Positions 1,129-60,345 of a stretch of 64,000 nucleotides of DNA are shown piece after piece (within the stretch, counting starts at the first letter, position 1; the number at the start of each line of letters is the position of its first letter). This DNA comes from an uncultured Erysipelotrichaceae bacterium (GTDB lineage: Bacteria > Bacillota_I > Bacilli_A > RF39 > UBA660). The DNA is taken from the NCBI GenBank assembly GCA_902794075.1, contig CADBGE010000001.1, forward strand, positions 140,603 through 204,602, given 5' to 3'. The notes under the pieces are model-generated. The model did not search any database and had not been told where the DNA came from. It saw only the letters and a program-made list of their open reading frames with translations. Position numbers and translations under genes: made by a program.

Positions 1129-1135
1129 AAATATT

Positions 1136-16950: not shown

Positions 16951-18624
16951 TTAATACTTACGTAATCTCATCATCTGAGCATATACGTTATTATGATAAT
17001 CATTAATGATATCTTTACTTTCCTTTACAGGTTCTTCTTTCTTCTCAAAATCAACTGAACCCCAGAATGATTCAAGAACACCTTCTTTAGTGAAATCATA
17101 CATCTTTGAAGAACGAACTATTTCTTCCTGACGAGATTCATTTAACATATTCCAAGAAGGAAGATATTCAGAAGGCATGTTCTGTACTGCATAAATATTT
17201 GCATATTTATCAGTTGCCTTGTTTTCCTTTACAATTTCTTTAACTGCACTGTTCTTATCATCAGAAAGAGTTTCAAGAAGTGAATCAATTTCATCAAGAC
17301 GAGCTGCATTATTCTCAGAAATGTACTGAGCAACATTTGCATTCACACTCTCATTAATCTTGTTTTCAAGTACTGGAGCATATTCATCTGTAATCCAATT
17401 TTCAACAACTGTTGAATATTCTTCAGCAATCCAGTTCTCAACAGTTCCTGCAAATTCTTCAGAAACCCAGTTATCAACTTGCTGTCCAAATTCCTCAACA
17501 ATCCAATTTTGTAGATTCTGTGCAAATTCTTCATTTACATACGCCTTAACATCATCACTAAACTTCTCATTAACTTCAGTGTTGATCCATTCATTTACTT
17601 CATTTGCAAAATCTTCACAAATCCAACCTTGTACAGCTTGTGCAAATTCTTCATTTACATATTTCTTAATGCTATCGAAAATATCTTTCTTGAATACAGG
17701 TGAAAATTCCTCTCTAATCCACATCTCAACGGCATTGTAATTTGGTTGAGCAGATTCTTGAGCAACATGAAGTTGAGCCTCAAGAGTTGTCACCTTATCA
17801 GCAAGAGCATCAATTGATTTTTTAAGTTCTTCCATAGTTACTTTACTATCTTTATCTTTGTTATCTTTTTTCTTTTTTTCTTCTTTTTCTGAATCATCTG
17901 ATTTTTCTTCAGATTTCTTTTCAGATTTTTCATCTGACTTTTCTTTTGGTTTTTCATCAGACTTTTTATCGTCTTTCTTTTCATCAGATTTATTATCATC
18001 AGATTTCTTATCGTCTGAATCAAGATCAAGAAGATCATCTGATGAATCATCCTTTTCCACGATAGCCCACATAATGTTGCCGTTATCAAGACTTTCATTA
18101 AGAGACTCAACAGTTTGATTTTCCTTAAGAGTTAGTTTTGCTTGTGAGAATCCAGGAGTTCCAACAAGATCATACGTCTTAAGCGATGTTAAATTGACAC
18201 GACCTTCGTTGGTAATTGTACCAGCACCACGTGAACTAATGTAAAGAGGAAGTCCTCCTTCAACAATAGCCTGAGCAATTTTGCCCTTTGGTGTGTTGAG
18301 TAATAAAATAGTACCAGTGATTGTGCCATCCTCATTCATTTCAATACTTTCAATCTTATGAGAAACATTCTCAAGATTGATATTGAAATTATTTGGATGT
18401 TCCAATTCACCAGGACAACCTTCAGTAGCAATTACTTTCTGTAATGACTCAACCATCGCAGCATAATTTGCTTTGTCATAAATACGATTGTTCTGATTTT
18501 TAACTCCACATACTCCAAAAACACCTGACAAGCGAACACCTTCATGAGGATTTTTGCTCTCTTGAACGGTAAGATCTGAAACCTTGCCTAATGTTTCAAA
18601 GAGCATACAATTTTTATTTGTCAT
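16951..18624 (-). CDS. prohead core protease (T4 gp21-like) fused to an acidic scaffold-like domain
   Basis: LSGVFGVCGVKNQNNRIYDKANY...GELEHP parallels T4 gp21 IEGIFMQAEVVNRNKRLYPKRIL...GELNHP. The C-terminal 350 aa are a K/D/E/S-rich tract plus tandem EEFAxxVxNWI repeats. Confidence 0.8.
   Translation of the reverse strand: MTNKNCMLFETLGKVSDLTVQESKNPHEGVRLSGVFGVCGVKNQNNRIYDKANYAAMVESLQKVIATEGCPGELEHPNNFNINLENVSHKIESIEMNEDGTITGTILLLNTPKGKIAQAIVEGGLPLYISSRGAGTITNEGRVNLTSLKTYDLVGTPGFSQAKLTLKENQTVESLNESLDNGNIMWAIVEKDDSSDDLLDLDSDDKKSDDNKSDEKKDDKKSDEKPKEKSDEKSEKKSEEKSDDSEKEEKKKKDNKDKDSKVTMEELKKSIDALADKVTTLEAQLHVAQESAQPNYNAVEMWIREEFSPVFKKDIFDSIKKYVNEEFAQAVQGWICEDFANEVNEWINTEVNEKFSDDVKAYVNEEFAQNLQNWIVEEFGQQVDNWVSEEFAGTVENWIAEEYSTVVENWITDEYAPVLENKINESVNANVAQYISENNAARLDEIDSLLETLSDDKNSAVKEIVKENKATDKYANIYAVQNMPSEYLPSWNMLNESRQEEIVRSSKMYDFTKEGVLESFWGSVDFEKKEEPVKESKDIINDYHNNVYAQMMRLRKY
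17349..17724 (-). repeat. in-frame coding repeat (about 12-aa EEFAxxVxNWI units) in the scaffold domain
   Basis: VNEEFAQAVQGWICEDFANEVNEWI...VNEEFAQNLQNWIVEEFGQQVDNWVSEEFAGTVENWIAEEYSTVVENWITDEY. Confidence 0.75.
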
Positions 18625-18747: not shown

Positions 18748-19308
18748 TTATGCAACTGTTTCTTTTGATAGTCTTCTCATCACCTTTTTTATTACAGTCG
18801 GACTATAAGTCATTTTTATAGTTTGCTTATTATTGTCGTTATTAGAAATTTTCATATATTTGCTATCAATGTTCAATTTATTTAGTATTTCATCAGCACT
18901 AAAAAATATATTGTCTACAATTGTACTATTTCTTTTTTCTAAACAAAACTCAATAAATTTGTAAATATGTTCGTCATCTTCATGAATCACAAATATATTT
19001 CTTTCTCGGTCTGAATTTTTTTCATAAGAATATAATACATTGTCATCAATATGTTCAAGTTCAACTTTTTCATCATCATTATATATTCCAAAAGACTTTA
19101 ATAATTTATTCTTTTTTACTACAAATTTGTTATTGTCGCATTCCTTTATTTTAGTTTTAAAGACATCAAACTCAAGTGCAATGTTATTATATCTTATAGA
19201 ATAATATTTTGTAATTAATATAACCACACCTTTATCAAATTTCTTTCCGTCTTTATAATCTTTGTTGATGATTAGTCTTTCTTGTATGTAGTTTATTAAT
19301 GACTTCAT
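18748..19308 (-). CDS. hypothetical protein with CTS-like leader (MKSLINYIQERLIINKDY)
   Basis: Intact 186-aa ORF immediately upstream of the protease gene. The leader carries an I-Q-E site. Confidence 0.6.
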   Translation of the reverse strand: MKSLINYIQERLIINKDYKDGKKFDKGVVILITKYYSIRYNNIALEFDVFKTKIKECDNNKFVVKKNKLLKSFGIYNDDEKVELEHIDDNVLYSYEKNSDRERNIFVIHEDDEHIYKFIEFCLEKRNSTIVDNIFFSADEILNKLNIDSKYMKISNNDNNKQTIKMTYSPTVIKKVMRRLSKETVA

Positions 19309-24920: not shown

Positions 24921-25397
24921 TTAAATATTAACTTTAGTTAAAGTTTTTTCTAATTTGTCAGTTAATTCAAGTTCGCCTCTTGAGAATATGCAAGGAATCA
25001 TGTTTGAACATTTGTGATTAAATAATTTTTTATCAACAATAATTGGCTCAATGGCTTTCAATATTTTGCTATAATCATTATCACCATCAAACACAAATGC
25101 AACAACACTATTTGCCTTATCATTATCGCAAATATTAGCAGCCCAATCAGGCATATATTTAGCACCGTCAATATCAACCGGTTTAAGATCATCTTCAGTC
25201 ATCTTATCAACGTATACTGTCAAGAACATGCAATTATTGTTTTGCGCAGCCTTAAAAACAGGTGTTTTTATTTTTTTAAAATTATCACCAGTAACAATAA
25301 ATGGTTTTCCTGATTTAATCAATTCATCTAAAGAATTATCAGATTCATAAATTCTTACATTTGAACTTGTTTGTAAATATTGTGTTAAACTTTTCAT
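24921..25397 (-). CDS. degenerate AAA-domain paralog of the MoxR-like ATPase, with CTS-like leader
   Basis: KPFIVTGDNFKKIKT...YMPDWAANICDNDKANSVVAFVFDGDND aligns with FFIIGRAGWGKTS...LMPDWAAEMDENKDVDYLLFFDEMNQ. Both Walker A (GKT) and Walker B (DE) are lost. Starts MKSLTQYLQ. Confidence 0.5.
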   Translation of the reverse strand: MKSLTQYLQTSSNVRIYESDNSLDELIKSGKPFIVTGDNFKKIKTPVFKAAQNNNCMFLTVYVDKMTEDDLKPVDIDGAKYMPDWAANICDNDKANSVVAFVFDGDNDYSKILKAIEPIIVDKKLFNHKCSNMIPCIFSRGELELTDKLEKTLTKVNI

Positions 25398-29892: not shown

Positions 29893-30540
29893 TTATTCCT
29901 CCCATGCTTTTATTACTCTAAGATTAGGAATTCTTAAATTTCTTGCAGCAGTAACATTTTTTGTATCATCATCAACAAATACGACTTTATCATATTTTTT
30001 ACATAGATACTTAAGAACATTTGCTTTTCTTTCTGAATCACTTTTTCCAGGATAATTCTTTTGGTCATCATTTATTGCATGACTTAACGTTTTCTTAAAT
30101 GTGTCTCCAAGTTTTCTTAATGATTTATCGTTACGATTTCTAACTCTTAAGAAATCATCAAGAGCTGTCTTAATAGTTTCCTCACAACCTCGAGCAGTCA
30201 AGAAACAGAAATCATAGCCTGCTTCTATATAATCATCCATAATTCTTAAGTTCTTAATTAATGGTGTACCTGCCATTATACTTTGATAAACCTTTATTGG
30301 ATCTCTGAAGTCTCTAAAATCAAACCATGATTTTTTATTTGGATCTGCTGCATCAGGATCTTTAGCAAATTCTTCTGTTGACAATACTTTTTCTGATTTG
30401 CCTGGTTCATTCTTATATACAGACATTAACTTTGGATCAACTTTAAGAATAGTATCATCAATATCAAATACAATTAATCCTGTTGTATTATTTGGTAATG
30501 GCCTTATTCGCTCTAAAATATATTGAACTAAACTTTTCAT
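29893..30540 (-). CDS. HAD-superfamily phosphatase with CTS-like leader
   Basis: Motif I is LIVFDIDDTIL (DxDxT), motif II is CFLTARG, and motif IV is VVFVDDD. Starts MKSLVQYILER. Confidence 0.7.
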   Translation of the reverse strand: MKSLVQYILERIRPLPNNTTGLIVFDIDDTILKVDPKLMSVYKNEPGKSEKVLSTEEFAKDPDAADPNKKSWFDFRDFRDPIKVYQSIMAGTPLIKNLRIMDDYIEAGYDFCFLTARGCEETIKTALDDFLRVRNRNDKSLRKLGDTFKKTLSHAINDDQKNYPGKSDSERKANVLKYLCKKYDKVVFVDDDTKNVTAARNLRIPNLRVIKAWEE

Positions 30541-33500
30541 CTATTTCTATTTTCTAATATATATTGAGATAGTGACTTTGGTTTTATTAGCAGTACAACA
30601 TCATTATCATCATATGATTCTTTTATTTTTCTATCTTTCTTTACTTTATTGTAAATCAAATTTGCTATTTTTTCTAATTCTTTTTCTGTATATTTATGTT
30701 TTGCGGATACATAATCCTTACTAGTACTAAAGAAATTCTTTATTGCGCTCCAAATTTTTCCAAAGAATCCTTTATGAGATTTTTCCTTATGTTTACTTAA
30801 TTGATATTCTGATAACATATCATTTGTTCTATTCCATTCTTTCTCATTAAGATTTCCATTGTCATCAATAAGATCTGGATTTATTTGTTCTAATTCATCT
30901 TGGAGTTCTTTATCATTCTTAACTGTATCTGAATTTGTTTTTTGTAATTGTTCTAATTGTTTCTTTTCATCAGGTGTTTCAGCTGCAGAAACTTTGGTGC
31001 CATTTTTTATCATTTTTACAGCATTTTTATCATTTTTCAATATATCTGCTGCTTCCGCATTAGTTAAGTTTGCAAGCTCTGGACGTTCTTTATCATTTTC
31101 AGCATTATCATCCAATTCATTCTTTTCATTGCATGGTTTATATGACAATACATTATATAATTCAATAATTTGTTCACTAAATATTTTTCCAAACATTTTT
31201 GAAAGATTATCTTCTGATGTTCCTCCTTCAATTGTAATTATTTCACATGTATTAAATAATCCTTTCATTGAGTATGGATCTTTACGTGGACCTGATTTAT
31301 CAGCATTTGCAAGATCTTTCCCATAACCATATATTAAAAGCATTATTGGTTTTACTTTTCCATCATCTTCTGATTCTTTTCCATTATCATCATTTTTATC
31401 GTTTGAATTATCTGACGAATTGCCGTTATCTTTACCCTCTATTTTATCATCAGAAGTTTGTTCTTCTGTTTCTACATCATTAGCGACTGGCTTAATAAGT
31501 AACATTTCTTTATCTTCGTCAGATATATTACTTTGTTTTATTTTATTTTCAAGATCTTTTTCTGATGATTCTTCAGGTTTCTTTTCGTCTGTTTTCTTAA
31601 CAAAATCTTCTTTGTCTTTATCGGTTATTTTGAATTTCTTTCTAAGTTTAAGATCTTTTATAATGCCAGTATGTTCAAAATAACTATCTATTTTTTCAAG
31701 TAAATCAATGATTTTGTTATATTCTGCCTTACAATAATTATCTACATCATTTTTATTTAATGCATCACTATTTTCAGCGTTTTTCTTTTTATCCTTTAAT
31801 GCACCTACTAAATCATTGATATAAAAGAATAAATTATATACATCTTCATAAACACCAGATTTTTTAGATATTTTTCCATCCCATACAACATTATAATAAA
31901 ATCTTGATATTAATTCAATAGCTGTTATTGGATACTTTTTATCTTCTTCATTTCTATCCTTATTCAGCATTTTTAATTCTTTATTTGCAGCTGCATCACC
32001 GGAAAATATTTTATTAAATGCATCAACATAAAAATGAATTCTATTGGAATCCCAATCTTTTAATTTTTTAGACTGTCCAGAGCCGTTCTTACCACCTAAT
32101 CCATACGGGCCCGCCTCTTTTTGTACCCAATGATATATTTTATTTATTTCTTCTGCTAAATTATCAAATGTTACACCTTCCATGATTAAATAATCATGAA
32201 GACTTGTATATGATTCATTAGTTTCTTCATCAACCTTCTTACCATATATTAATATGCATTCACCATTATCGATTTCTTTTTCAAAATGTTCTTTAAATTC
32301 TTTTAATTTATCTTTAATTTCTTTTTCATCTATATTGTCATCTTTCTTTGAACCTTCAAGAATTTGTTTCATGTATTCAACATTATTATCAACAATCGTC
32401 TTTTTAATATTTTCATAATCTTTAGTATGATCAGATTTTTTAACGACTCTTACATCATCTTTGCCCACATCATATACATAATTTTTCGAACCCTTTTCAC
32501 CAAGACGTATTCTGAAGCCACCATTATTTTCTGGAGCAAGCTCGACACTTGGAATTGTGACCAACATTGATGTTGCTGCTTGAGCTATATCTTGAATAAC
32601 CGTTGTTTGTGATACGTTATTAATAACAGATCCAACTATACCAAACATATTTTTATTTCCTAAACAACCAGCATCAGACAGTGCTTTTAATAGTTTTCCT
32701 GGCATTCTAAAACCAGTTACAGAACCCTGACCACTAAATATTGCATTAAGTCCCTTATTAAGTCCACGTTCTGGATTTAAGTATTTTTCCATACCCATTT
32801 CTTTTGCAATGGCAATTGCTTTATCGCTCCATGCGTTTCCTCCAGAACCCCCCTTTAAGAAGCCATCAGCAACAACATCATACACGCCGTCATCCGATAC
32901 TTCACTTGGATCCATAAACATTGATTTTGCTTTGTTCCAAAAATCTATAGGCCTTTTGAATTGTCCTTTCTCAAAATTGTTTTTAATGAATTCTGCACCC
33001 TCCTGTCCTTTTTTGACAGTATTTGTTACTGTTTTTGTTACCTTTTCAAATACGTGTTGATTAAATGATTCAGAAATTGCATCATATGAAGCTTTGAAAT
33101 CATCCATACTGAATTTACCTTCCTTAAGCATAGTTATTACAGCAGCAAATCCTCGTTGAAGAGCATCTGGTTGTATACCTAAATTTGCCTTCGATAATAC
33201 ATCAAAACCTGATTTTTGTAATCCTTCAAGTACTGGTCCAAGATTATCGAATAATGATTTAAAGTTAAAGAATAAAGCAACAAGTGAACCAACCATACTA
33301 AGAACAGTAATCCATTTTTGTAATTTACCGTATGTCTTCCATTCAGATTTGACCTTTTTAAATTGTTTCCAAAGTTTTACAATTTTATATCCATTCCATG
33401 CTAATTTGCATACAAGCGGAACAAGTAATGCAATAAATGTTCCAGGAAATGCTGCAATTACAACACCAGGAATTGCTACACATACGGTTGCCCATATTGC

Positions 33501-40762: not shown

Positions 40763-43700
40763 TTATGCATTTTCATCAATTAGTATACGGCCTTCTGTAT
40801 CAAGATCCTGTCCAAGTGTTTCATATCTTAATCCCCAGTGGTCTCTTATGAAATGACCTCTACGATAATAATCAGGATCAGTAATCTGATTATAATCTGT
40901 ATATAATTTTTCTACGTCATTTATCATTTCCTTTGGATTTTTTCTATAAGTGCCAAGGTCTTGTGTAAACTTATTCATATCTCCATATATTGAAGAATAA
41001 TTATTTTTTACATATTTATTAATATTATCATTCGACAATTGTGCATATGCTTTTTGTCTATTTGTAGTCAATTTACTTAATTGATTTTGATATTCTTCTT
41101 TACGTTTTCTATGTTCTTCAATTTCCTTTTGTTTTGATTCAGTATCTGAACTACTATTTGATGATTGAGTTGATTGAACAGGTTTTGGTTGTTCATCCTT
41201 TTTTGTGTCTTCACTAGTTATTTCCGTAGATTCCTGTTCTTTTGTTTTTTCTTGTTCTGTCTTTTTTATTTCAGTGATTTCTTTATTCGCTTTGTCAATA
41301 GCTGCATTTTCTGCTGATATTTTTGCAGTTAAGTCTGCAACCTGAGCATCAATTGTTTCTAATTGTTCTGCAAGTCCTTGTGCATAATTTGCCTTTAATA
41401 GTTCAGATTCTACTTCTCTTCCAGATGTAGTATTGGAAACAGTAAAGAATTCAGATAGCTTGTTCTTATCTAATGTGTTATAGAATGCGCCAACACCCTT
41501 TGTATACATACGAGCAACTTCAGATAAGTCTCGTGAACGTCCATGCTTAAGTGTACATGAAACCTTTAGTTCAGTTGGAAAATCATCAAATCCAAGTGGG
41601 CCACTATGTGTTATCTTAGTATTAGTAAGTATAAGATTACCAAATGCTGCAATTGGATTTTTAGGATTACCGATTGTTACATGCCATAAGCCAACTGGAG
41701 AACCATCCAAAAGTGAGTTCATTACATATACAGCAGGTCTACCTAATTGATTCTTAAGTTGTCCAAGTAATGCTTTAGAAGCACCTGAAGAAACAAATTT
41801 TCCTGCTAATTTTTTAGCACCACTAACAAATAGATTTGCAAATCCTCCCTTACCTTCTGCAGCTCCTTTGATTGCCTGTACTGCACTATTTACTGCATCT
41901 GACAATGAACCAAGAATACCTTTCCAGTCAAGAGTACCATTTGCGAATCCAGCAACGAAACCTTCTAGCTTATCCCATTGACTATCTATAAAGGCGTTTG
42001 CTGTTGCTACTGTTGACGCATTTCTTGGCGGACCAATGATTCGTCTTTCACCACCCCAGAAATGGCCTCTATTATAAGTTACTTCCAAAATATTGCCCAA
42101 CAAGTCAAGCATAACTGTTTTTGGATTCATTACATCAAGTGCACGCAATCTATATGAAAAGTTTAATGTGAATTCATGAGACAGTTCAAGTCTACCTTCA
42201 TACTTATGTGTTGCTTGTATTGTGTTCTGTGGAGTATATATCTTATTCTTATCTGCACTCATTCGCATAAGCTCCCACTTCCTCATCGAATTTGAATTTA
42301 CTCCATCTGCTCCAGCATTTGAACCACCAAATATTCCTGTTGCTCCATCTATAGTTCCACCAAACAATCTAGATCCTAATTTATTCCATAATGAATTTGA
42401 ACCAGCCATTCCTTGTGCTACACGTGAATTATATGCAGGATTAAATGAATTGGCAAACATTCCAATTAATCCGCCGCTCGGATTATCTTCCTCTGATTGT
42501 ATGTCTTCACGTTCCGCAGTTAATTCTTTCCATGTACTTTTTACACTATAATTTAATATATCTTCCAATTTATTGTCATCTGTGCCAAACCATGTTATAA
42601 GTGTTCCTATTGGCGCATTTTCTTGATATCCATGATACCCAGGCATTTTATCATTAAGATAACCTTTTCCAGAAAATCTAAATATGTTATCTCCAACAGG
42701 ATGCGCAAATCTTCTTAATGTTATCATATGATTATTAGAAACCTTGCCTATGTTTTTACAAAATAGAAAATCAGCATACTTATACTTTGACATACCTAAT
42801 TGTCCATTTGGTGTATGACTTAATCTAACAAGTTCTCTAATAGTACAATTTCCAGAATTGTCAATAAGTTTTGAATTAAATGGATCCCAATTTATTTTTA
42901 CCTTTACATCAGTTCCATCTCGCATCCATGATCCACTTTTACCACCATCTGTACTTTCTTGACCCAATAATCCTGTTATAAATTCTTTACTACTTTTTGT
43001 TTCTGAAAAATATTCTCGTTTTGTTTTAGCATCTTTTCCAGAACCTGTAGTTATATCAGTATATATTAATTTAGATGATGGATCATACTTCCATTTAGCA
43101 CCATTATTCTGACTATTTAATGCACTTGTTAATCCATTTGGTCCTTTAACATATCCATTATCATCCAATATTACTTCCCATGAATTATATGATATTGGTG
43201 TACTAACGCCATTTTTATTACTTTCATCATTGAGACCTAAATACGCAGAATCACCAATATATATCCAATCATCATTGTTTGAAGATGACATCATATTCAT
43301 CAACGGTAAATTGTCAAGAAGACCATTTACTTGAATAACATGAGTAGGGTTAAATACTGATGATACAACTTTTGTCATTAAACCAGTAACCTGTACTGAT
43401 TCTGGAGTAGTTCTTTTATTTGTTGTTTGTTCAGCTGATGAATTTTCTGTTCCTGTCTGAGTACCTTGTACATTACTTGCTTGAGTATTTTGTTCACCAT
43501 TAGCATTTGAAGTATTTGTTGTAGTAGATTCAGGTAAATCAGTATTTTCTGCTCCAGCATTCATTAAGTTTTTTACTGGAGTTTTATATATACGATTATA
43601 TCTATTAACAGTAGATAATATAGATGCAGGAATCATATAGGGGTTTTCTGGTGCAACTAGATTTTGATTATCTTTGCTTGCTGATGTAATAGATGTCGTA

Positions 43701-43984
43701 CCATCATTATTAACAGTCTCAAAGGGTTCTCCAGTAAATATTGTGAAATTTTGTCCAAGTATAGGACGTGGCTTTGTTCTAAATGAATTTCTAGATATGT
43801 CAAGATTATAATCATTTAACATTTCTTTTTTAAATGTTGCATTTAAGTTCATATTAAATGATTTAATTCTTGATACATCAAACTGTTGCAATGGTTCATC
43901 TGTCTGATAAACTCTGTTCCCAGAATCATCATATAGATTATTAAATTTTCCACCTTGATTAGTAGTATTTGGAAATGATATCAT
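40763..43984 (-). CDS. large (1073 aa) hypothetical protein, probably virion-associated
   Basis: Intact ORF with an S/T/N/Q-rich linker and a C-terminal coiled coil (QVADLTAKISAENAAIDKANKEITEIKK). Terminators and the promoter motif flank it. Confidence 0.35.
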   Translation of the reverse strand: MISFPNTTNQGGKFNNLYDDSGNRVYQTDEPLQQFDVSRIKSFNMNLNATFKKEMLNDYNLDISRNSFRTKPRPILGQNFTIFTGEPFETVNNDGTTSITSASKDNQNLVAPENPYMIPASILSTVNRYNRIYKTPVKNLMNAGAENTDLPESTTTNTSNANGEQNTQASNVQGTQTGTENSSAEQTTNKRTTPESVQVTGLMTKVVSSVFNPTHVIQVNGLLDNLPLMNMMSSSNNDDWIYIGDSAYLGLNDESNKNGVSTPISYNSWEVILDDNGYVKGPNGLTSALNSQNNGAKWKYDPSSKLIYTDITTGSGKDAKTKREYFSETKSSKEFITGLLGQESTDGGKSGSWMRDGTDVKVKINWDPFNSKLIDNSGNCTIRELVRLSHTPNGQLGMSKYKYADFLFCKNIGKVSNNHMITLRRFAHPVGDNIFRFSGKGYLNDKMPGYHGYQENAPIGTLITWFGTDDNKLEDILNYSVKSTWKELTAEREDIQSEEDNPSGGLIGMFANSFNPAYNSRVAQGMAGSNSLWNKLGSRLFGGTIDGATGIFGGSNAGADGVNSNSMRKWELMRMSADKNKIYTPQNTIQATHKYEGRLELSHEFTLNFSYRLRALDVMNPKTVMLDLLGNILEVTYNRGHFWGGERRIIGPPRNASTVATANAFIDSQWDKLEGFVAGFANGTLDWKGILGSLSDAVNSAVQAIKGAAEGKGGFANLFVSGAKKLAGKFVSSGASKALLGQLKNQLGRPAVYVMNSLLDGSPVGLWHVTIGNPKNPIAAFGNLILTNTKITHSGPLGFDDFPTELKVSCTLKHGRSRDLSEVARMYTKGVGAFYNTLDKNKLSEFFTVSNTTSGREVESELLKANYAQGLAEQLETIDAQVADLTAKISAENAAIDKANKEITEIKKTEQEKTKEQESTEITSEDTKKDEQPKPVQSTQSSNSSSDTESKQKEIEEHRKRKEEYQNQLSKLTTNRQKAYAQLSNDNINKYVKNNYSSIYGDMNKFTQDLGTYRKNPKEMINDVEKLYTDYNQITDPDYYRRGHFIRDHWGLRYETLGQDLDTEGRILIDENA

Positions 43985-44084: not shown

Positions 44085-44729
44085 TTAAAATTCAATATCA
44101 TGCATATCTGGAATATTTGGAACATCACAAGAATCAGATGGACACTTAAGTTCACAATCGCGTGCATCAGTATCTCCACAGTCACAGCAGCCACAACCAC
44201 ATGATCCATGAATGCCAACATCACATAAGAAGTCTTCAATCTCTTGTAGATGTTCTTCTTCATCAGCAAGTATAGCCTTTACTTTTCTATTTGTGACTGG
44301 GTCAACATTACGAGTAATTTCCTCAAGATCTTTATAGGTCTCAATAGCACCCATCTCCATTTGTTTGCAGTCCTCAAGTGACGATTGTATCATAATGTTT
44401 CCGTCAACTACAATTGGGTTTACATAAGGATGTGCTATAGATGATAATGCAGAAAATACTGTAACAAACGAAGGATTTCCTCCAAGCTGAGCAATACGTT
44501 CAAGAATCCATTTTGCATGGTCTTCAAATTCATCCTTTGCGGCATCTTCGTAGAATTCCTCGATATCCTTACGTGACGGTCCACATAAGAATTCTGAAAC
44601 TGATATATAATAATACCATGCTGCAATTTCTTCTCTATATGCATTATATAACTTGTCAAGAATTAAGTTCTTAACTGTTGGTTCAATGTAACCAACACTT
44701 TCGTTTATTTTTTGCGTAAAAGTTTTCAT
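44085..44729 (-). CDS. ferritin-like (bacterioferritin/Dps superfamily) protein with Cys-rich tail and CTS-like leader
   Basis: EIAAWYYY...EDAAKDEFEDHAKWILERIAQLGG and EMGAIETY...ILADEEEHLQEIEDFL give the paired ExxH di-iron motifs. The C-terminus is GSCGCGCCDCGDTDARDCELKCPSDSCD. Starts MKTFTQKINES. Confidence 0.65.
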   Translation of the reverse strand: MKTFTQKINESVGYIEPTVKNLILDKLYNAYREEIAAWYYYISVSEFLCGPSRKDIEEFYEDAAKDEFEDHAKWILERIAQLGGNPSFVTVFSALSSIAHPYVNPIVVDGNIMIQSSLEDCKQMEMGAIETYKDLEEITRNVDPVTNRKVKAILADEEEHLQEIEDFLCDVGIHGSCGCGCCDCGDTDARDCELKCPSDSCDVPNIPDMHDIEF

Positions 44730-44758
44730 ATATTATTTATTATATTAATTATATCTTA

Positions 44759-45400
44759 TTATTCTGCCCAGTCAGGTACTTGTATATTCGGGCATCTATA
44801 AAATGCATCCCTCGATGAAATATCTCCTAAATAATCTGACCATTTTGATATATCTACATTTTTAAGAACTTTACATCCATTAAATGCATTGTCAAATATT
44901 TCTAAATTTTCTGGTTCCCATTCCGAAACATCACCTATCGTTTCAAGTGAATTACAGTAATAGAATATTTTTTCCATATCTTTTACTTTGTTGACTTTCC
45001 AATTTGTCAAATCAAGTTTTTTAAGAGATTTACAGAATCTGAACATACATTCCATGTCTGTAACATTAGACACATCAAAATTCGATACATCAACATTTTC
45101 TAATTCTAAACATGCCTGAAACATACCACCCATGTACTTTGCATTTTCAGTGTTCCATTCTTCAATATGTATTTTCTTTGTTTTTCTTAATTCAGAAAAT
45201 ATATATGAACTAAATATATCTGAAAAATCCTTTATAGAAGATACATCAATATCATTTAAATATAATTCCTCTGGGTTTTTAGTCAAACGTTTAGATATTA
45301 TGCCACGTAATTGTTGTTTAGATACGACATCTATTGTGTTATTTTTAAATGACTTGTTGATTATTAGTCTTTCATCTATATATGTCTTTAATGATTTCAT
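44759..45400 (-). CDS. BspA/DUF285-type leucine-rich-repeat protein with CTS-like leader
   Basis: Starts MKSLKTYIDERLIINKSF. Repeats include FDVSNVTDMECMFRFCKSLKKLDLTNWKVNKVKDMEKIFYYCNSLETIGDVSEW. Confidence 0.75.
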   Translation of the reverse strand: MKSLKTYIDERLIINKSFKNNTIDVVSKQQLRGIISKRLTKNPEELYLNDIDVSSIKDFSDIFSSYIFSELRKTKKIHIEEWNTENAKYMGGMFQACLELENVDVSNFDVSNVTDMECMFRFCKSLKKLDLTNWKVNKVKDMEKIFYYCNSLETIGDVSEWEPENLEIFDNAFNGCKVLKNVDISKWSDYLGDISSRDAFYRCPNIQVPDWAE

Positions 45401-45669
45401 TTTATTCTACACCAAATTGTTTGACCCCATTTGACTGCATCACCAATTTCTGCCTGCCAAATCTTTGCAGTAACACGGTCAGTTGTACGTTCATCATCAC
45501 CAGTTATATCATCTTCTGAATCATACGATACTACATCAACAATCATATCATTCCCGTAATATATCATAAATACACGTGTATCTGCACCTGACTGCTTAAT
45601 AAGTTCTGATACATCAATATCGTTCTTAATATGATTATATTCTGTAATATACTTTACTAAGTTCTTCAT
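45397..45669 (-). CDS. hypothetical small protein with CTS-like leader (MKNLVKYITEY)
   Basis: 90-aa ORF with an ATGA overlap to the downstream LRR gene. Confidence 0.5.
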   Translation of the reverse strand: MKNLVKYITEYNHIKNDIDVSELIKQSGADTRVFMIYYGNDMIVDVVSYDSEDDITGDDERTTDRVTAKIWQAEIGDAVKWGQTIWCRIK

Positions 45670-45717
45670 TATATATTATTTAATATTTTATTTAAGATAT
45701 TTAATTAAAAATATTTT

Positions 45718-46122
45718 TCAGAACACAATCTTTGATTCACGTTCAACATTCTTTAAGCTGTCTGAACTATGCATTGCGTTTTTCATCTCTGACTTACCCC
45801 ATACATCTCTGGCCTTGTCCTTGAGTTTCTTCATTTCTTTAATAGGGTCTCCACAGTCTTTATGACAAGTGCAGCATATGCAATCATCGCTAGACATATA
45901 GTTGCACAGGTCCTTATAAAAGTCTTTGTCCTTGTGCATTTTATAAAGTTCTTCTGCTTGTTCATGTGTTAGTTTTAATTTCTTTTTCTGAACGATCTGC
46001 CAATCGTTGTTCTTTAGCATATCAAGCCATTGCTGTTCATATTTTAAGAATTCTGGCTTAAGAATTACAAATGCGTTAAGTTCTGCATTTTGCTCTTTTA
46101 TGAATTGGGTAAATGTTTTCAT
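45718..46122 (-). CDS. ndk: nucleoside diphosphate kinase-like protein with CTS-like leader
   Basis: FVILKPE, KLKLTHEQAEELYKMHKDKDFYKDLCNYMSS and NAMHSSDSLKNVERESKIVF are collinear with E. coli Ndk IIKPN, [31 protein letters not shown] and [20 protein letters not shown]. Starts MKTFTQFIKEQ. Confidence 0.75.
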   Translation of the reverse strand: MKTFTQFIKEQNAELNAFVILKPEFLKYEQQWLDMLKNNDWQIVQKKKLKLTHEQAEELYKMHKDKDFYKDLCNYMSSDDCICCTCHKDCGDPIKEMKKLKDKARDVWGKSEMKNAMHSSDSLKNVERESKIVF

Positions 46123-49100
46123 CCTATTCTTATTATACCGTATTTCTTATATTGTTGAGTTGAGATTCTGTCAAGACTATATCTATAAGTCACATCATAG
46201 TATCCTTTAACATATTCATCATTATACATAGGAACATCAAATATGCACATATCTATATTAGATTTTGACGTATGCATATTTTTGTCAATAGCAAAGCTAA
46301 CAGGAGTCAGTTCCCATTTACTGCTCTTGAATATGTCTATTGGCAGCCTTTCATTATTAATTACCTTACCAACTATTATATCATCAGTATTAAAATGATA
46401 CTTGCCATTCTTTGATGAATATACATATCTATTTACTAAGAATTTCTTTGTAGATGCAACTTTGACTAATTTATATTGATTATTGTTTTTAGAAGTAAAC
46501 ACAATATCATCATCAGCAGAATAATCATATAATGTCATTGACTTATCACATGTATCCTTAGAAATATATATAATATACCAATGCTTAATGTCATGCATTA
46601 GATACATATCATATTCAATTAAGTTTTTATCAATGTTTAAATCACTAATTGCATCAATACTGTTTATATTATATTCACTTAATTCTAGTATTGTGTTTTT
46701 CTCAAAGAATTCATTATATAAATCTATTACTGATTGTGAACGTCTACAGTCTCCATATTTATACGTAGTATCACCAATTGTATAATCAACAAATTCATCT
46801 GTTTCATACGAATCATTATTAAATGAATCTAATGGATATTCCAATTTATCATAATCCTTATAAGTTAATCTTATTGTTGGATTTATGTCAATTTCAAATT
46901 TTTCAGAATTTTCAGTCGTTTTAGATATTGGTATTGCTACAAAAAATGCTATGAATTCATCATATGTTCTAATGATTGGTTCATTATTTTCATTATTATA
47001 TATATGATTTATAGTATTATTTACTAAATCACAATCAATATAGCATTTTGTGTTTTCATTATGTTTTAATATTCCTTTAATAGTAAATATGTCATCATAA
47101 TATTCATATCCTGAATTTCCGTCATAGGTCCATCTTGCTCGTAAAACTGTCTTTATTTTGACATTTGCGTTTTCTGAAGAATCATTTGTCTGATTACTAT
47201 CTATTTTAAAGTTTATGTCAATTTTGTTATTATTATGATCTTCTATATATTTATCAGAATAATCGTCAAAAACATTAGTATTTTCATAATTCTTTATAGA
47301 ATTAATTAATCTTGATGTTACATTTAAAATCAATAATTTTCTATATGACAATATATGTTTAATATCCTCATCATTATTTGAATCGATATTTGGTTCAATT
47401 AGTTCTATAAAATCATTATCATTATTATAAGTTATGTATTGTATAGTATCATCCACGTCTTTAATGTCAACCCAATCAAATCCTGGTTGATTAATTAATG
47501 TAGGATGATTAAATAGTCTATCAAAGTTTTTATCTATATCTGAATAGAATGGTGTAAGAATTACATTTTTATTATTTATTAAAGCAGTATACACACCATT
47601 TGATAATGTTGCCTCACCTGTGTATATATGCTGAATGTTATTCACAAGTTTATTTATTATTGAGAAAAATCTTATTCTAATTTCATATACATATTCATCA
47701 TTATTAACAGATAGATCATTTCTAAAATATTTACTTATAGTGTTAACATATTTTGAATATGATGGATTCTCAACCGTTTCTTCATTTGTAATACGAGACT
47801 TCTTTATTATTTCAGCTTTATAAATTACTGGTGTTTCATTAGAATCAACATTATCACGTTCAATATATAATGAACCTTCTTTATTCTTTAATTTATATTG
47901 TATTCCATCTCCATTTTCTGACATATCAGATATGATAGTATTTTCTGATGTAAGTATATAATTTAATTCATCAAAAGTTTTAACATCTATATAATATGAA
48001 TACACTGGTCTAGATTCCTCGTCTAAACCTACATATGAAAATTGTTTTTCATTTCCAATTATACTTATGCTATCTGATGAAAATACTCCAGTTGGCATAC
48101 CGTCTTGTATCTTTTCATAATATACATATCCTGTTGGCATTATAGACATTTCTTCATTATTTCCATAATCGATCCAATCACCTTCATATGCAGAATATAT
48201 AGTTAGATCATCATGTGTATTGACATAACTATTATATACATTAGTATCTTCTAATCCTGAAACAAATGACTTATTGTCTGTAGTTCTTTCATCTGAATTT
48301 GTTAATAAATTATAAGTATATCCAGTTATATGTATAAGATTTCCGCTTAAGAAATTTTCATGCTTAAATCTTACACCATGATACATCATATCTATATTGT
48401 TCTGTAAATATAATATGTTGTCACCAGTATGTTCATTTAATCTATATAAATCATAAACATGAATCTGATTTAGATATTTATATTTATTAGTTATGTTATG
48501 TGTTTCAATATACTGTTGAGCTAAAGTGGATGCGTCACTTCTTAATGATTCTTTTACTGAAAATTTCAATTTTCCTGTAGGCGTATCAACCTCATATGTA
48601 TTAGTATCAGAATCATATTTAAATAACTTATAATTATTAGGATCATTTTTTATAGAAACTGTGTCAGTCACATCGTTTTCAAATATTAATGTTTCTGTAT
48701 CAGTTCCAAGTATTTCATATGTATTATTATTACCGAGTTCAGCAAATACATATAGCATATTTGGATCTATGAATAAGTAGAACAATACATCGTAATTAAA
48801 ATATTTTCTTGGTATCACCAAATCTTTACCAACGTTTTCATTACTTATATATATTCTTTGTGAATATGTTTCATTTGTATTGTCATCTTTTATTTTTACA
48901 TCAATGTACTGACAAAATTCTCCTGCAGGAATTAAACTGCCATCTATATATCTTGCTGAACTAATATTTATATATTTTAAAAAGTTCTCTAAGAAGTTTA
49001 TATCATTAACTCGTGCAAGTCTTGGTTCATGCATAAATGAATTAAATGATAAAGATGTATAGTCTAATTTATTTAATTGATTAAATCTTGTAGAATATTT

Positions 49101-51440
49101 TAATTCATCATCATAGTATTTATATATTAATCTACCAAAATCAATATTGATGTCTGGCATTCTTATGGTAAATTCATAAGAATGCCATGTATTGTTCACA
49201 AGCATTCTAAGTCTGAATTTACTATTGATGAAATAAGTAATGTCAATGTTTTTATTCGTTAGTTTGTTTCCATGAACATTTGTCAATATGTCGGTTGAAA
49301 CATTGTTAAACATTTTAGGATATATGACAAAATCATTATATTCATTATGCTTAGGATTAAATGTAAAATCAGATTCATAAAATATGTTTGATGATGGAGA
49401 ATATCTTATATTGATGTCTGATGTTATATCATATAATGAATTATTACTATCTTCTATTATGCACTTACTTATTTTGTCATTCGGTATTCTAAATCGCAAT
49501 AAAAGATTACTATATTCAACAATTTTGCATTCTGCTGAATTATTTAAAATATCTTCATTAATTTCATCTAAACCTGGTATATATAATGTTACTTTTCCAA
49601 TATTTATATATCGAGATTTATCAGTTATGTCATATTCTTGGTCATTATGAGTAAATTTATACTTATTTTTAGAACCATCCCATTTTAAATCTACTCTATA
49701 TGTTTTGTCATTTGTTAATATTTCTTTAAGTGAATTTAATCCATGAAAATATGTTGAATAAGTTTTTCCATCATCAACTGAATATGAAACTCTAATGTTG
49801 TTTAAATCAATTTCGTGATTAGTAATATCATATATATGAAGTGTGTCATCATAAAGATTTATTTCTTTATTAACATATAATACATTATCTGTTTCTGATG
49901 TTAGTTTTTCAAGAATTAAATGAACTTTATACTGCTCATCATTATATATTGGATTATTAAATTCATCAACACCATACTTCAGAAACTTTATTGGAATATT
50001 AGCACACGTGTCATGAATATAATATATATCTCTATCTTGTGAATATTCATTTAAGGAATCGTATTTCCATTCATTAAATAATTCATCAACATAATGGACT
50101 TGTTCAGTTAGCCATATTTCATTATTCATTGGAAATTCAACATAAGGATCATTCCAAAGACCCATTTTAACAATAGGCTCAGTGATATGTTCAGACGAAC
50201 TACATATCATTTTAATGTCATTTGCATATACCTTATGATGCAATGATGCATTATGAATTGACAAATGAACAGGTAAGAAAAAATGCTCGTAATAATATTT
50301 TAATGTAGCTAATTTATAAAGAAGTTCAGTAATGATAAAATCATAATATGATCTATAATAATATGTTTCTTCACCAACACCACCATATTTTACTGGTATT
50401 TGCTTATCAAATAGGTTTTCAAGCTCTGGCTGATTTTCACCTATAAAATCTTTACTAAGATCATAATCATTATATTTTCCTGTTTCTTTATTTTCCCATA
50501 CAATAAGTGACAGCATTGTTGAATTAATGAAATGCTTAAATGAATCCAATATGTCAGAACTTGTGTCAAAATAGTCTCTCACAAACTGTATCATAAACTG
50601 ATTGTCTGTTTCAAGAAGAGATACTAATTCAATCTTATCACCCCAGCCAAACCATTTTAACGATTGTATTGCAGAGTTATAATTACCTATCTCACCACGA
50701 ATCTGCATATACTCAAGAAGATACTCTTTTAGTTTTTCATTATATAATACTTCATCAAATTCTCCATTAAAATATGAACCATTATATACAGCTCTAAGTA
50801 TTTCATGCGGAAGACGAACTCCCATGTTTTGTCCGTTTATATATAATATTTCACTTTCATCATTAAATTCTGCACCAACAGTTATATAGCAATATTCATA
50901 TGAAATATAATAATTATCAGTGATGTCATCATTTTCATTGTCATTTTTCTCTACAATAGAATGACTAGCTTTTATAAGAATGTTTGTAGCAAATGATCCA
51001 ACTTCAGATGAAGTGCCCATTACATAAAATGGGTATATGTATTTTTCTATAAATTTTGAATTTGATGTTTTATGAGATGATTTTACTTTTAATTCAATAA
51101 TATCATTAATACCATTATTACCATTATTAGAATCATATGATAGAACATTTTTAAAATCAGTTTCATCTATGGTTAATACACCATTTTTAAACTTGTCAAC
51201 AGCGTCTTTAGAACTCAACAAAGCAAATACACGTGATTCTAAAGATATTTCAAGTGTAGATATTTTTTCATCAAAAATTATATATATTGGTCTAATGTAA
51301 AAATTATTTACAGAACAATAAGAATGATCTTTGTTATCTATCCAAAACACATACTTATTCTTATAATATTCATATCCAATTGGTCTATAATTAAATGACT
51401 GTTGATAAAATGTATGTCCTGATGAATCTACAAAATACAT
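46119..51440 (-). CDS. giant (1773 aa) hypothetical protein, probably baseplate/tail-fibre structural
   Basis: Uninterrupted 5.3-kb ORF with N/Y/D/I-rich composition. No catalytic motif recognised. The structural assignment rests on size and context only. Confidence 0.35.
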   Translation of the reverse strand: MYFVDSSGHTFYQQSFNYRPIGYEYYKNKYVFWIDNKDHSYCSVNNFYIRPIYIIFDEKISTLEISLESRVFALLSSKDAVDKFKNGVLTIDETDFKNVLSYDSNNGNNGINDIIELKVKSSHKTSNSKFIEKYIYPFYVMGTSSEVGSFATNILIKASHSIVEKNDNENDDITDNYYISYEYCYITVGAEFNDESEILYINGQNMGVRLPHEILRAVYNGSYFNGEFDEVLYNEKLKEYLLEYMQIRGEIGNYNSAIQSLKWFGWGDKIELVSLLETDNQFMIQFVRDYFDTSSDILDSFKHFINSTMLSLIVWENKETGKYNDYDLSKDFIGENQPELENLFDKQIPVKYGGVGEETYYYRSYYDFIITELLYKLATLKYYYEHFFLPVHLSIHNASLHHKVYANDIKMICSSSEHITEPIVKMGLWNDPYVEFPMNNEIWLTEQVHYVDELFNEWKYDSLNEYSQDRDIYYIHDTCANIPIKFLKYGVDEFNNPIYNDEQYKVHLILEKLTSETDNVLYVNKEINLYDDTLHIYDITNHEIDLNNIRVSYSVDDGKTYSTYFHGLNSLKEILTNDKTYRVDLKWDGSKNKYKFTHNDQEYDITDKSRYINIGKVTLYIPGLDEINEDILNNSAECKIVEYSNLLLRFRIPNDKISKCIIEDSNNSLYDITSDINIRYSPSSNIFYESDFTFNPKHNEYNDFVIYPKMFNNVSTDILTNVHGNKLTNKNIDITYFINSKFRLRMLVNNTWHSYEFTIRMPDINIDFGRLIYKYYDDELKYSTRFNQLNKLDYTSLSFNSFMHEPRLARVNDINFLENFLKYINISSARYIDGSLIPAGEFCQYIDVKIKDDNTNETYSQRIYISNENVGKDLVIPRKYFNYDVLFYLFIDPNMLYVFAELGNNNTYEILGTDTETLIFENDVTDTVSIKNDPNNYKLFKYDSDTNTYEVDTPTGKLKFSVKESLRSDASTLAQQYIETHNITNKYKYLNQIHVYDLYRLNEHTGDNILYLQNNIDMMYHGVRFKHENFLSGNLIHITGYTYNLLTNSDERTTDNKSFVSGLEDTNVYNSYVNTHDDLTIYSAYEGDWIDYGNNEEMSIMPTGYVYYEKIQDGMPTGVFSSDSISIIGNEKQFSYVGLDEESRPVYSYYIDVKTFDELNYILTSENTIISDMSENGDGIQYKLKNKEGSLYIERDNVDSNETPVIYKAEIIKKSRITNEETVENPSYSKYVNTISKYFRNDLSVNNDEYVYEIRIRFFSIINKLVNNIQHIYTGEATLSNGVYTALINNKNVILTPFYSDIDKNFDRLFNHPTLINQPGFDWVDIKDVDDTIQYITYNNDNDFIELIEPNIDSNNDEDIKHILSYRKLLILNVTSRLINSIKNYENTNVFDDYSDKYIEDHNNNKIDINFKIDSNQTNDSSENANVKIKTVLRARWTYDGNSGYEYYDDIFTIKGILKHNENTKCYIDCDLVNNTINHIYNNENNEPIIRTYDEFIAFFVAIPISKTTENSEKFEIDINPTIRLTYKDYDKLEYPLDSFNNDSYETDEFVDYTIGDTTYKYGDCRRSQSVIDLYNEFFEKNTILELSEYNINSIDAISDLNIDKNLIEYDMYLMHDIKHWYIIYISKDTCDKSMTLYDYSADDDIVFTSKNNNQYKLVKVASTKKFLVNRYVYSSKNGKYHFNTDDIIVGKVINNERLPIDIFKSSKWELTPVSFAIDKNMHTSKSNIDMCIFDVPMYNDEYVKGYYDVTYRYSLDRISTQQYKKYGIIRIG

Positions 51441-59044: not shown

Positions 59045-59836
59045 TTAAGCTTTTCTAATAATAAATTCTTTAGTGTCTAATTCATATGCTTTACAGTTAT
59101 CGAGCATCTTGTTGTTCATTACTTCAATAGCATCACCATATCCGATACTTCTGTCAGGTTTATAAAATGCCTGAAGAGTATGTCCAAACACTTGCTTAAT
59201 CTGCATAATCTGAAGAGCTGTTTCAGAAATGTCTAACTCCGGATCTTTCAACATTTCTTGATGCCACATTGTGTCTGAAGCATCTGCCCAAATACATGAC
59301 GCATACTTATCTAATCCACCTCTATCTGAAGAAACCATAAACAAATACTGAAGTCCCTTATCAGTGTTAAGCAAATTGTTCAATGAAAATGCAAGATCTT
59401 CAAGTGACGTTAACTTATATTGTTCTGTAAATACTGTCATAATCCATCCGGGTGTGCATCCTGCATGAGTGAAGAGAACATCATCAGCGACATCAGCAAT
59501 CTTGAAGAGCTCTTTATATTCTTCAAACCGCTGACGGATGTCGTTACAATATTGATTTGAATGACGTGAATGATACCATGTGAATGACTTATACTTCTCA
59601 CTAAAATATGGCATATCATGATTGCCAAGAAGAAGTGTCACCTTATCCTTATGTGCATCAGCAAATGCTAATATATTCTCAAAGTTCTCAAGTGCTTCAG
59701 AAACAGTGATATTCTCAAAATCATACGGATCCATATAGTCACCTAAGAAAATGATCTTGTCATAATCTTCTATATGCTTACACGGTTCTTCCCAAAACTT
59801 TCTACCGTGAATGTCGGGCAGTACTAATATCTTCAT
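59045..59836 (-). CDS. calcineurin-like metallophosphoesterase
   Basis: ILVLPDIHGR, IIFLGDYMDP, LLGNHD and a downstream GHT form the canonical DxH / GDxxD / GNH(D/E) series. Confidence 0.85.
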   Translation of the reverse strand: MKILVLPDIHGRKFWEEPCKHIEDYDKIIFLGDYMDPYDFENITVSEALENFENILAFADAHKDKVTLLLGNHDMPYFSEKYKSFTWYHSRHSNQYCNDIRQRFEEYKELFKIADVADDVLFTHAGCTPGWIMTVFTEQYKLTSLEDLAFSLNNLLNTDKGLQYLFMVSSDRGGLDKYASCIWADASDTMWHQEMLKDPELDISETALQIMQIKQVFGHTLQAFYKPDRSIGYGDAIEVMNNKMLDNCKAYELDTKEFIIRKA

Positions 59837-60345
59837 CTTTCTTCAACGGTTAATAAATAATCTTCAATATAATCCTTTGGTAACATATATTCTGTTTTAT
59901 TTCTATCTTGTTGTGGGGTAAAACCCATGACAGAAATTAATTTAGGAATAAGAACAATCCAATCGTTTATAATTTTTTTCTTTTGTTCTTCTGATACTTC
60001 AATATTTTCAGTAATAAATTTATCATCAAATAGGAATTCAATATTTTCATATTTATTGAATTCTAATTTTTTGATAATGACCTCTCTTACAAGTGTTGTC
60101 TTATCGTAACCTGTTGTTACAGCAGCATGAATTTTTGTTATATATGATTTTACTTCATTACACCAATGGTTCTTATTAATATTAGCAAAATCATACAATA
60201 CACAATATCTAACAAGACACCAATGCTGAAATAATGTTATAGAAATATTATCAATGTCTTCTCCTAATTGAGATCGCTTTTTTGCCATCTCAAATATTTT
60301 TGTATTTTCAAGTGTTCTTATTAAATATTCTTTCAAAGATGTCAT
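59833..60345 (-). CDS. hypothetical protein, weak CTS-like leader (MTSLKEYLIRTLE)
   Basis: 170-aa ORF with an ATGA overlap to the phosphoesterase gene. It is helical and distantly DUF29-like in pattern (unverified). Confidence 0.4.
   Translation of the reverse strand: MTSLKEYLIRTLENTKIFEMAKKRSQLGEDIDNISITLFQHWCLVRYCVLYDFANINKNHWCNEVKSYITKIHAAVTTGYDKTTLVREVIIKKLEFNKYENIEFLFDDKFITENIEVSEEQKKKIINDWIVLIPKLISVMGFTPQQDRNKTEYMLPKDYIEDYLLTVEER

Follow-up and report, generated by a model that had tools for sequence, protein, structure and literature searches.

In bacteriophage T4, the unrelated proteins IPI, IPII, IPIII, and Alt, which are processed by the prohead protease gp21, share an N-terminal tag of about 10 residues, the capsid targeting sequence (CTS) MKTYQEFIAE (PMC8442874). 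IPIII needs no more than its first 10 residues to be incorporated into the head; residues 4 and 7 act in targeting, residues 8 and 10 act in processing, gp21 cleaves after L/I-x-E, and foreign enzymes fused to the CTS are carried into T4 heads (PMC9026906). The internal proteins of T-even phages are otherwise diverse, sharing "only a conserved CTS" (PMC3012670). In giant phages, propeptides carry redundant cleavage sites, and a protease distantly related to gp21 takes them off by cutting on the C-terminal side of Glu (PMC9026906). Here we examined a 64,000-nucleotide stretch of DNA (the window; positions 140,603 to 204,602 of contig CADBGE010000001.1, assembly GCA_902794075.1), which encodes a T4-type head module and in which at least 18 genes begin with a decapeptide leader of the form MK[ST][LF]xx[YF]IxE. 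We propose that this leader is, on balance, probably a T4-type CTS, a cleavable propeptide that would load diverse cargo into the head for delivery with the DNA.

A preliminary description of the window singled out four consecutive leader-bearing genes on the minus strand at 44085-46122. The open reading frames (ORFs) lie exactly there and encode a nucleoside diphosphate kinase (NDK)-like protein of 134 amino acids (aa; 45718..46122, leader MKTFTQFIKE, NDK domain from about residue 17), a 90-aa orphan protein in no Pfam or PHROG family (45397..45669, leader MKNLVKYITE), a 213-aa DUF285/BspA-type leucine-rich repeat (LRR) protein (44759..45400, leader and junction MKSLKTYIDE-RLIINKSF), and a 214-aa Dps-like (DPSL or "thioferritin"-type) ferritin-fold protein (44085..44729, leader MKTFTQKINE, Cys-rich C-terminal tail). 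Their tight packing was likewise borne out, with gaps of 29 and 48 nucleotides (nt) and two 4-nt ATGA overlaps. The gene for a 215-aa HAD-superfamily phosphatase (29893..30540, minus strand), said to carry the same leader, does begin with MKSLVQYILE, and the block and HAD leaders together give the consensus MK[STN][LF]xx[YFK]IxE. The block does not stand apart. It is part of a far larger tagged set, comprising at least 18 genes in the window (five of which had been recognized), 9 of 15 genes beyond its left edge, and arrays of nine.

We scanned a six-frame translation of the window with the motif M[KT][STN][LF]xx[YFHK][ILM] and took the chance level from shuffled sequences. The motif occurred 20 times, compared to 0.56 in shuffles, and 18 of the 20 matches were starts of ORFs on the coding (minus) strand, representing roughly a quarter of the genes. 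Composition does not explain the motif, because it was absent from all 229 ORFs scanned in three AT-rich huge phages (25 to 31% GC): 0 of 120 in 100 kb of PTm1, 0 of 46 in the head region of LR756500.1, and 0 of 63 in the head region of Lak-A1. When the 18 tagged proteins were compared by BLAST after removal of the first 30 aa, they fell into 16 unrelated groups, with only the three DUF285 proteins clustering together. As in a T4-type CTS system, a short N-terminal tag of about 10 aa thus stands on otherwise unrelated proteins. Mean pairwise nucleotide identity among the tagged genes was 0.64 in the first 30 nt only, versus 0.30 to 0.40 in flanking DNA. Within the leader, third codon positions were the least conserved (0.49, versus 0.61 and 0.70 at the other two), and the same residue was encoded in different ways (Ser3 by TCA or TCT in 9 leaders and by AGT in 5; Tyr7 by TAC in 7 and by TAT in 6). 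Since the similarity does not extend past the first 30 nt, third codon positions vary most, and the codons for Ser3 and Tyr7 are mixed, the selected object is the peptide. We conclude that the leader is a modular tag on unrelated proteins, maintained by selection at the peptide level.

The profile of the 18 leaders reads M at position 1, K at 2, S/T at 3, L/F at 4, Y/F/H at 7, I/L/M at 8, and, in 9 of the 18, E at 10, with positions 5, 6, and 9 variable. In 17 of 17 leader ORFs, but in only 17 of 47 non-leader ORFs, the N-terminal 25 aa included an [ILM]-x-E, the arrangement of a propeptide that ends in the gp21 cleavage motif L/I-x-E. From residue 11 onward the proteins read QNAELNAFVILKPEFLK in the NDK, SVGYIEPTVK in the ferritin, RIRPLPNNTTGLIVFDIDDTILK in the HAD protein, and RLIINK in the DUF285 protein. 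The tag is kept on orthologues of the NDK, the ferritin, and the 90-aa protein down to about 55 to 60% identity. It is also selective within the window: IF-1, transaldolase, isochorismatase, dNMP kinase, the C5-methylase, the TAGT glycosyltransferase, a metallophosphatase, and an EEP nuclease/phosphatase are all free of it. A pattern scan of IMG/VR for the leader returned 0 matches, a tblastn search of deposited phages with the 26-aa leader module returned none, and a single pattern scan of metagenomes found the tag on eight AT-rich contigs. The tag is restricted to this phage clade.

The machinery that a CTS system would need is encoded in the same window. A 557-aa prohead protease-scaffold fusion protein (16951..18624, minus strand) matches Peptidase_S77 (PF03420, 1.5e-10) and the head maturation protease family PHROG 207 (2e-37), and a 618-aa major capsid protein (14917..16773, minus strand) belongs to the T4 Gp23 family (PF07068, 1.1e-31). 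A gp21-family protease, a scaffold, and a gp23-family capsid protein thus occur together, as in T4, where cargo genes likewise occupy variable loci. The S77 protease-scaffold protein is predicted to be the enzyme that removes the leader. Its scaffold half contains five [WYF]-I-x-E sites (WIRE, WICE, WIVE, WIAE, and YISE) in 200 aa, compared to 0.2 expected from composition and to a proteome average of 0.13 aromatic-I-x-E sites per 100 aa; these sites fit a scaffold that is chopped at a leader-like consensus. Fusion of protease and scaffold in one protein also occurs in PTm1, as its "prohead core scaffolding protein and protease." In the window protein, a highly charged KSD/E-rich linker (about residues 195 to 260) precedes the N-W-I-x-E-E-F repeats; the protease domain covers about residues 1 to 200 and the scaffold half about residues 260 to 557. 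The capsid protein has a conserved [I/L]-x-E at about residues 39 to 45, aligned with those of PTm1 and LR756500.1. Among deposited genomes, those closest by capsid protein, with 30 to 34% identity, are LR756500.1, Tenacibaculum PTm1/pT24, Sphingomonas PAU, and the Lak megaphages.

Where function has been mapped in the T4 CTS, the leader looks like it. As the preliminary description had counted, the NDK leader is identical to the T4 CTS at 6 of 10 positions (1, 2, 3, 7, 8, and 10), with F in place of Y at position 4. The leader is conserved at positions 4, 7, 8, and 10, the functionally mapped positions of the T4 CTS; both tags have hydrophobic or aromatic residues at 4 and 7, and both have I8-x-E10 as the L/I-x-E protease site. 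L4, Y7, and I8 are spaced as i, i+3, i+4, as an amphipathic docking helix requires. We regard this resemblance as suggestive.

Assignments made earlier to the NDK, ferritin-like, DUF285, and HAD proteins are all backed by significant Pfam matches, and for the first two the fold was also recovered from AlphaFold2 (AF2) models and from comparison with the PDB. Failure of the predicted NDK, ferritin, or HAD folds had been named in advance as grounds for giving up the delivery hypothesis; the fold check was run and, since the NDK, ferritin-like, DUF285, and HAD folds hold, those grounds are absent. The NDK matched PF00334 at 2.3e-19 (70 bits, compared to a cutoff of 27), and a profile of 21 orthologues matched solved NDKs in the PDB at 1e-22 to 1e-7, again with the domain starting at about residue 17. 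In the AF2 model (predicted local distance difference test [pLDDT] score of 87.4), the leader is a low-confidence helix (residues 4 to 10) outside the fold, followed by a linker and a strand at residues 17 to 21. The top Foldseek match was the Mimivirus NDK (PDB 2b8q/3b6b; TM score of 0.81, root mean square deviation of 1.5 Å), with bacterial NDKs next. K22, Y60, R105, N115, and the catalytic H118 are invariant across the 21 orthologues, the last in NAMHSSDS, an instance of the N-x-x-H-[GS]-S-D signature, so that family match, fold, and catalytic residue all place the protein among the NDKs.

The ferritin-like protein matched Ferritin (PF00210, 4.5e-15; 56 bits, compared to a cutoff of 24.5) and Rubrerythrin (1.5e-6), and its best PDB matches were 2vzb, the bacterioferritin-related Dps-like protein of B. 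fragilis (1.3e-11), and 2clb, an archaeal DPSL protein. Its di-iron ligand columns are invariant (E33/E34, D66-E67..D70-H71, E125, and E157-x-x-H160), and AF2 predicted a four-helix bundle with a separate leader helix (residues 4 to 12) and a disordered tail (175 to 214). The bundle and the ligands together place it in the Dps-like (DPSL) branch of the ferritin-like superfamily. The tail itself (about residues 174 to 214; 44085-44210, minus strand) is a clade-specific, Cys-rich extension (GSCGCGCCDCGD..DC..C..C) that is lacking from more distant homologues and may bind metal. By sequence and fold, 2vzb and 2clb for the ferritin and 2b8q/3b6b for the NDK are the closest solved relatives; the two phage enzymes retain their catalytic ligand patterns and differ from them in the leader and, for the ferritin, in the Cys-rich tail. 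In the models, the leader lies outside the folds of both the NDK and the ferritin.

The HAD protein matched Hydrolase (PF00702) at 1.6e-7 (32.4 bits, compared to a cutoff of 26.4) and PHROG 415, annotated "polynucleotide kinase" (phosphatase-like), at 2.5e-10. It has HAD motifs I (FDIDDT) and IV (FVDDD), which together with the Pfam match identify it as a HAD-family member; a PDB sequence search with it found no close solved homologue, only a spurious match to RNase HII. Judged by their conserved residues and motifs, the NDK, the Dps-like di-iron ferritin, and the HAD phosphatase are apparently intact enzymes. The DUF285 protein of the block (44759-45400) matched PF03382 at 7e-41 and LRR_5 at 2e-8. 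An exhaustive search with the 90-aa protein yielded only two real homologues besides spurious matches to repeat proteins (ankyrin, Ig-like), and in a relative both its leader and its position next to the NDK gene are conserved.

The remaining leader-bearing genes of the window are also on the minus strand. Two leader-bearing DUF285 genes (56-595 and 592-1128) are paralogous to the DUF285 gene of the block and form, with a third gene found in the motif scan (1136-1747), a trio spanning 56..1747. Further along are a gene with a long leader (MKSLTHYIKSDKSSLISLSE-KLIISKDY; 9048..9467), a small ORF of 55 aa (10345..10512; MKSLIEYLKE), a 186-aa gene immediately upstream of the protease-scaffold gene (18748..19308; MKSLINYIQE-RLIINKDY), and a 158-aa gene (24921..25397; MKSLTQYLQT). 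Next to the HAD gene are two tagged genes without a family, encoding 62 aa (29678-29866; MKSLINFINN) and 188 aa (29089-29655; MKSLKEYMINE). In the 188-aa orphan, a D...E-I-K arrangement (DWELGDMCFEIKSF) recalls the PD-(D/E)xK nuclease motif, a candidate resemblance that no search confirmed. Three consecutive tagged genes follow at 51857-52372, 52410-52931, and 52928-53479, BLAST-unrelated once the first 30 aa are removed, and a weaker, 170-aa case lies at 59833..60345 (MTSLKEYLIR). Pfam and PHROG searches with the remaining tagged orphans gave nothing informative; one tagged protein has a faint match to a baseplate-hub PHROG (E = 0.003).

One copy of the leader is C-terminal. We built a leader matrix from the window, scoring true leaders leave-one-out against a background of 276 N-termini. 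The sole strong non-N-terminal match in 19,925 residues (score of 18.9) was PKSLSQYILE (30552..30581, minus strand), which is followed by NRNR and a stop codon at the end of a 1,251-aa protein (30537-34292, minus strand) directly upstream of the HAD leader. It lies 14 residues before MKSLVQYILE of the HAD gene and is encoded by different codons; the N terminus of the 1,251-aa protein is itself leader-like (MNLSEYIKI). Either C-terminal processing at this site, as occurs in T4 Alt, or a scar left by duplication could account for the copy.

The four-gene block is one variable cassette locus of cargo genes, set between two giant proteins within the neck/head gene region. It is bounded upstream by a 1,773-aa protein in no known family (46119..51440, minus strand) and downstream by a 1,073-aa protein (40763..43984, minus strand). 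Synteny of both is kept in a 397-kb relative, where the corresponding block has six genes, all six tagged, with partly different gene content. The order there is a gp13-like neck gene, a 79-aa gene, the giant protein, the cassette block, a protein of about 1,056 aa, a dNMP kinase, and a gp14-like neck gene. This cassette turnover resembles the diversity of T-even internal proteins. Past the left edge of the window (10537-20540 of the flanking stretch), 9 of 15 genes are tagged. Both long leaders (MKSL..YIKSDKSSLISLSE/KLVINKDY, the slash marking the junction) and tandem junction repeats (...QVDE/KLVIFPSQVDE/KLVI...) regenerate a hydrophobic-x-E/KL site; several left-flank genes carry such repeated modules, for example MKSLNKYIHEKLVIFPSQVDEKLVIFPSQVDEKLVIFPSQVDEK, with every repeat restoring V-D-E/KL. 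On one of the metagenomic contigs, JGI Ga0247610_10009228 (24% GC), nine consecutive genes (52-5383) all start with a variant of the tag and junction (M.NL..YI.EKLRINKDT). Related metagenomic phages thus contain a massively expanded family of tagged genes.

Several features bear on the identity of the phage. The "Jug" gut phages are T4-like, have genomes of 360 to 402 kb at 27 to 30% GC, infect Bacteroides/Phocaeicola, and include IF-1 among their core genes (PMC12880540). The window has 29.3% GC, an IF-1 gene (60350-60577, minus strand; PF01176, 6.4e-25), and a T4-type head; a contig of 400,076 bp encodes a protein identical to its ferritin, and NDK orthologues lie on contigs of 376 to 399 kb. 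By GC content, IF-1, and head type, the window fits a Jug-type Bacteroides phage with a genome of roughly 400 kb. The text of the Jug paper (PMC12880540) mentions neither the leader nor a ferritin or nucleoside diphosphate kinase. A 2026 paper in NAR refers to the CTS, but solely in citing the T4 studies. The window also contains a likely DNA modification module (55876-59027, minus strand) of two adjacent TAGT-like glycosyltransferase candidates (TAGT match at 1e-8, from a scan of 55876-56847 only) and a C5 cytosine methylase-family protein (57738-59027). The dNMP kinase gene (39628-40668) has no leader, nor do auxiliary metabolic genes at 10605-12279 and 25429-27378 (both minus strand), which encode an isochorismatase-family protein, a transaldolase/FSA (5.6e-63), and a 649-aa protein whose cytidylyltransferase-like N terminus is weak (0.0013, below the Pfam cutoff). 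Upstream of the head module, a 759-aa protein (20405-22684, minus strand) has a long, acidic, Ala/Asp/Lys-rich low-complexity middle and, in its C-terminal region, a DRSGSMG motif that resembles a vWA MIDAS site; it has no Pfam match.

Because one and the same CTS-like tag marks no fewer than 16 unrelated families, with three apparently intact enzymes among them, the phage probably loads the tagged proteins into its head. By analogy with T4, the tag would form a short amphipathic helix with L/F4, Y/F7, and I8 on its hydrophobic face, and this helix would attach the protein that bears it to the scaffolding core as the prohead assembles. Once the shell has formed, the S77 (gp21-like) protease-scaffold protein would cut after (aromatic)-I/L-x-E; the mature protein would stay within the head and exit with the DNA at infection. 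The phage would have grafted the tag onto all of these families, among them the three enzymes and many DUF285/LRR and orphan proteins, a set that has grown greatly. We infer these steps of docking, cleavage, packaging, and injection, together with any role of the enzymes early in infection, from the T4 precedent.

A number of observations weigh against this proposal. The T4 CTS scored 5.0 on the leader matrix, slightly above the background maximum of 4.7 (0 of 276 N-termini reached 5.0) and below the weakest true leader at 5.8, so common ancestry of the leader with the T4 CTS is not established. E at position 10 follows I/L/M at position 8 in only 9 of the 18 leaders, and some NDK orthologues have degenerate leaders (e.g., MKKFSDLISKKE). 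The W-I-x-E-E-F sites of the scaffold could be merely an internal repeat. Most of the mature cargo is acidic (isoelectric points of 4.3 to 6.8, with few basic proteins), whereas small basic proteins are typical, if not strictly defining, of IPI to IPIII. With about a quarter of the genes of the region tagged, and arrays of nine elsewhere, the cargo species would far outnumber those that T4 packages. NDKs of known structure are oligomers and Dps-like proteins assemble into cages of 12 subunits, so that packing and ejection would require an unassembled or unfolded state. A literature search for the clade found no proteomic data; PTm1, the closest cultured relative sampled, has no leader in 100 kb, so there is no experimental system or proteome to borrow.

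An unlikely alternative is that the tag marks its proteins for some other intracellular fate: a phage-built compartment or complex, timed degradation through an N-terminal degron, or zymogen-like proteolytic control without packaging. A modular N-terminal signal under peptide-level selection on unrelated proteins would suit any sorting or degradation signal, and so many tagged genes pose less of a difficulty if not all products must enter one capsid. Against this, the window contains no visible compartment or import machinery, the conserved positions and the I-x-E end match the specificity of the protease that the phage itself encodes, and, in T4-type phages, the CTS is the nearest precedent for such a decapeptide at the N terminus.

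Quite unlikely, in our view, is that the tag, especially with its EKL(V/I)INK junction, anchors interchangeable proteins by their N termini to an external virion structure (head fibers, neck, or baseplate), so that cargo would be displayed and not injected, analogous to the conserved N-terminal adaptor segments shared by multiple receptor-binding proteins in other phages. The composition of the tagged set lends this some appeal, since its largest class is the DUF285/BspA-type LRR proteins, typical binding modules found in long, diversified arrays; tagged genes also lie among tail-sheath, neck, and head genes, and the faint baseplate-hub match belongs to a tagged protein. An external anchor leaves the tagging of an NDK, a di-iron ferritin, and a HAD phosphatase unexplained, however. 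The tag also has only 10 residues, with a protease-type I-x-E at its end, and structure prediction gives it as a flexible helix appended to the protein; we identified no adaptor partner.

It is very unlikely that conservation acts on the nucleic acid, as a translation initiation or regulatory element or as a recombination boundary for cassette shuffling, with the peptide incidental. Gene starts do stay alike between relatives while cassette content varies, the junction segment is duplicated in tandem, and a copy of the leader sits at the 3' end of the gene upstream of the HAD start. Yet the DNA upstream of the leaders is not conserved, third codon positions vary most, and there was no Rfam family match. 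The TCA and AGT codon families of Ser3 are not interconvertible by a single synonymous change, Tyr7 is split almost evenly between its two codons, and the duplicated leader at 30552-30581 spells the same peptide as its neighbor with different codons. Cassette turnover and the duplicated junctions suggest that recombination at conserved gene starts occurs as a secondary effect. Finally, a by-product of paralogy or AT-rich composition can be dismissed: the three DUF285 proteins are true paralogues and ATG-AAA starts are common in AT-rich genomes, but the excess over shuffles and the absence of the motif from the three other AT-rich genomes reject chance and composition, and the 16 unrelated groups that remain after trimming reject paralogy for all but those three.

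If the leader is a CTS, it differs from that of T4 in its setting and its scale. The window phage probably has a Bacteroidota host and a genome of about 400 kb, and its capsid protein is related to that of T4 only at the Pfam level. The tagged genes of the 64-kb window far exceed those of T4 in number, and their products are metabolic or protective enzymes and LRR proteins, mostly acidic, whereas T4 cargo is small and basic. Many tags, known here from sequence alone, also carry an extra EKL(V/I)INK junction or are long or duplicated. The long leaders and tandem junction repeats parallel the redundant sites of giant-phage propeptides. Phages phiKZ, 201phi2-1, and SPN3US, whose inner-body and ejection proteins are processed by gp175/gp245, are likewise giant phages that pack many different proteins with their DNA; phiKZ-like phages have an S/A-x-E cleavage motif and long propeptides with no common decapeptide, in contrast to the aromatic-I/L-x-E and shared short leader of the window phage. 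The window yielded neither a gene for a virion RNA polymerase nor any for an inner body. Encapsulin cargo-loading peptides are likewise short terminal peptides that bring enzymes, notably ferritin-like ones, into a shell of the HK97 fold. In classic encapsulins the loading peptide is C-terminal and is not removed by a protease, the shell is without DNA, and nothing is injected.

We tentatively consider it possible that in abundant, roughly 400-kb Bacteroides phages of the human and animal gut the tag has expanded into a general loading system, through which dozens of unrelated proteins (among them an active NDK, a Dps-like ferritin, a HAD phosphatase, and large arrays of diversified LRR effectors) would be injected together with the DNA. 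If the leader is a capsid-loading signal at all, it would provide a sequence-only list of the proteins that an uncultured but very abundant gut phage delivers into Bacteroides at infection; such lists are normally known only through virion proteomics of cultured phages. It might also serve as a portable tag with which foreign proteins could be loaded into particles of Bacteroides phages. The CTS principle of T4 would be extended to a distant lineage, to enzyme cargo with potential roles in nucleotide-pool balancing, protection against iron or peroxide, and phosphatase activity, and to an LRR family, large and diversifying, of candidate anti-defense effectors. If the tag has indeed expanded into a general loading system, the code by which a CTS is recognized by the scaffold would be ancient and common to coliphage T4 and the megaphages of Bacteroidota.

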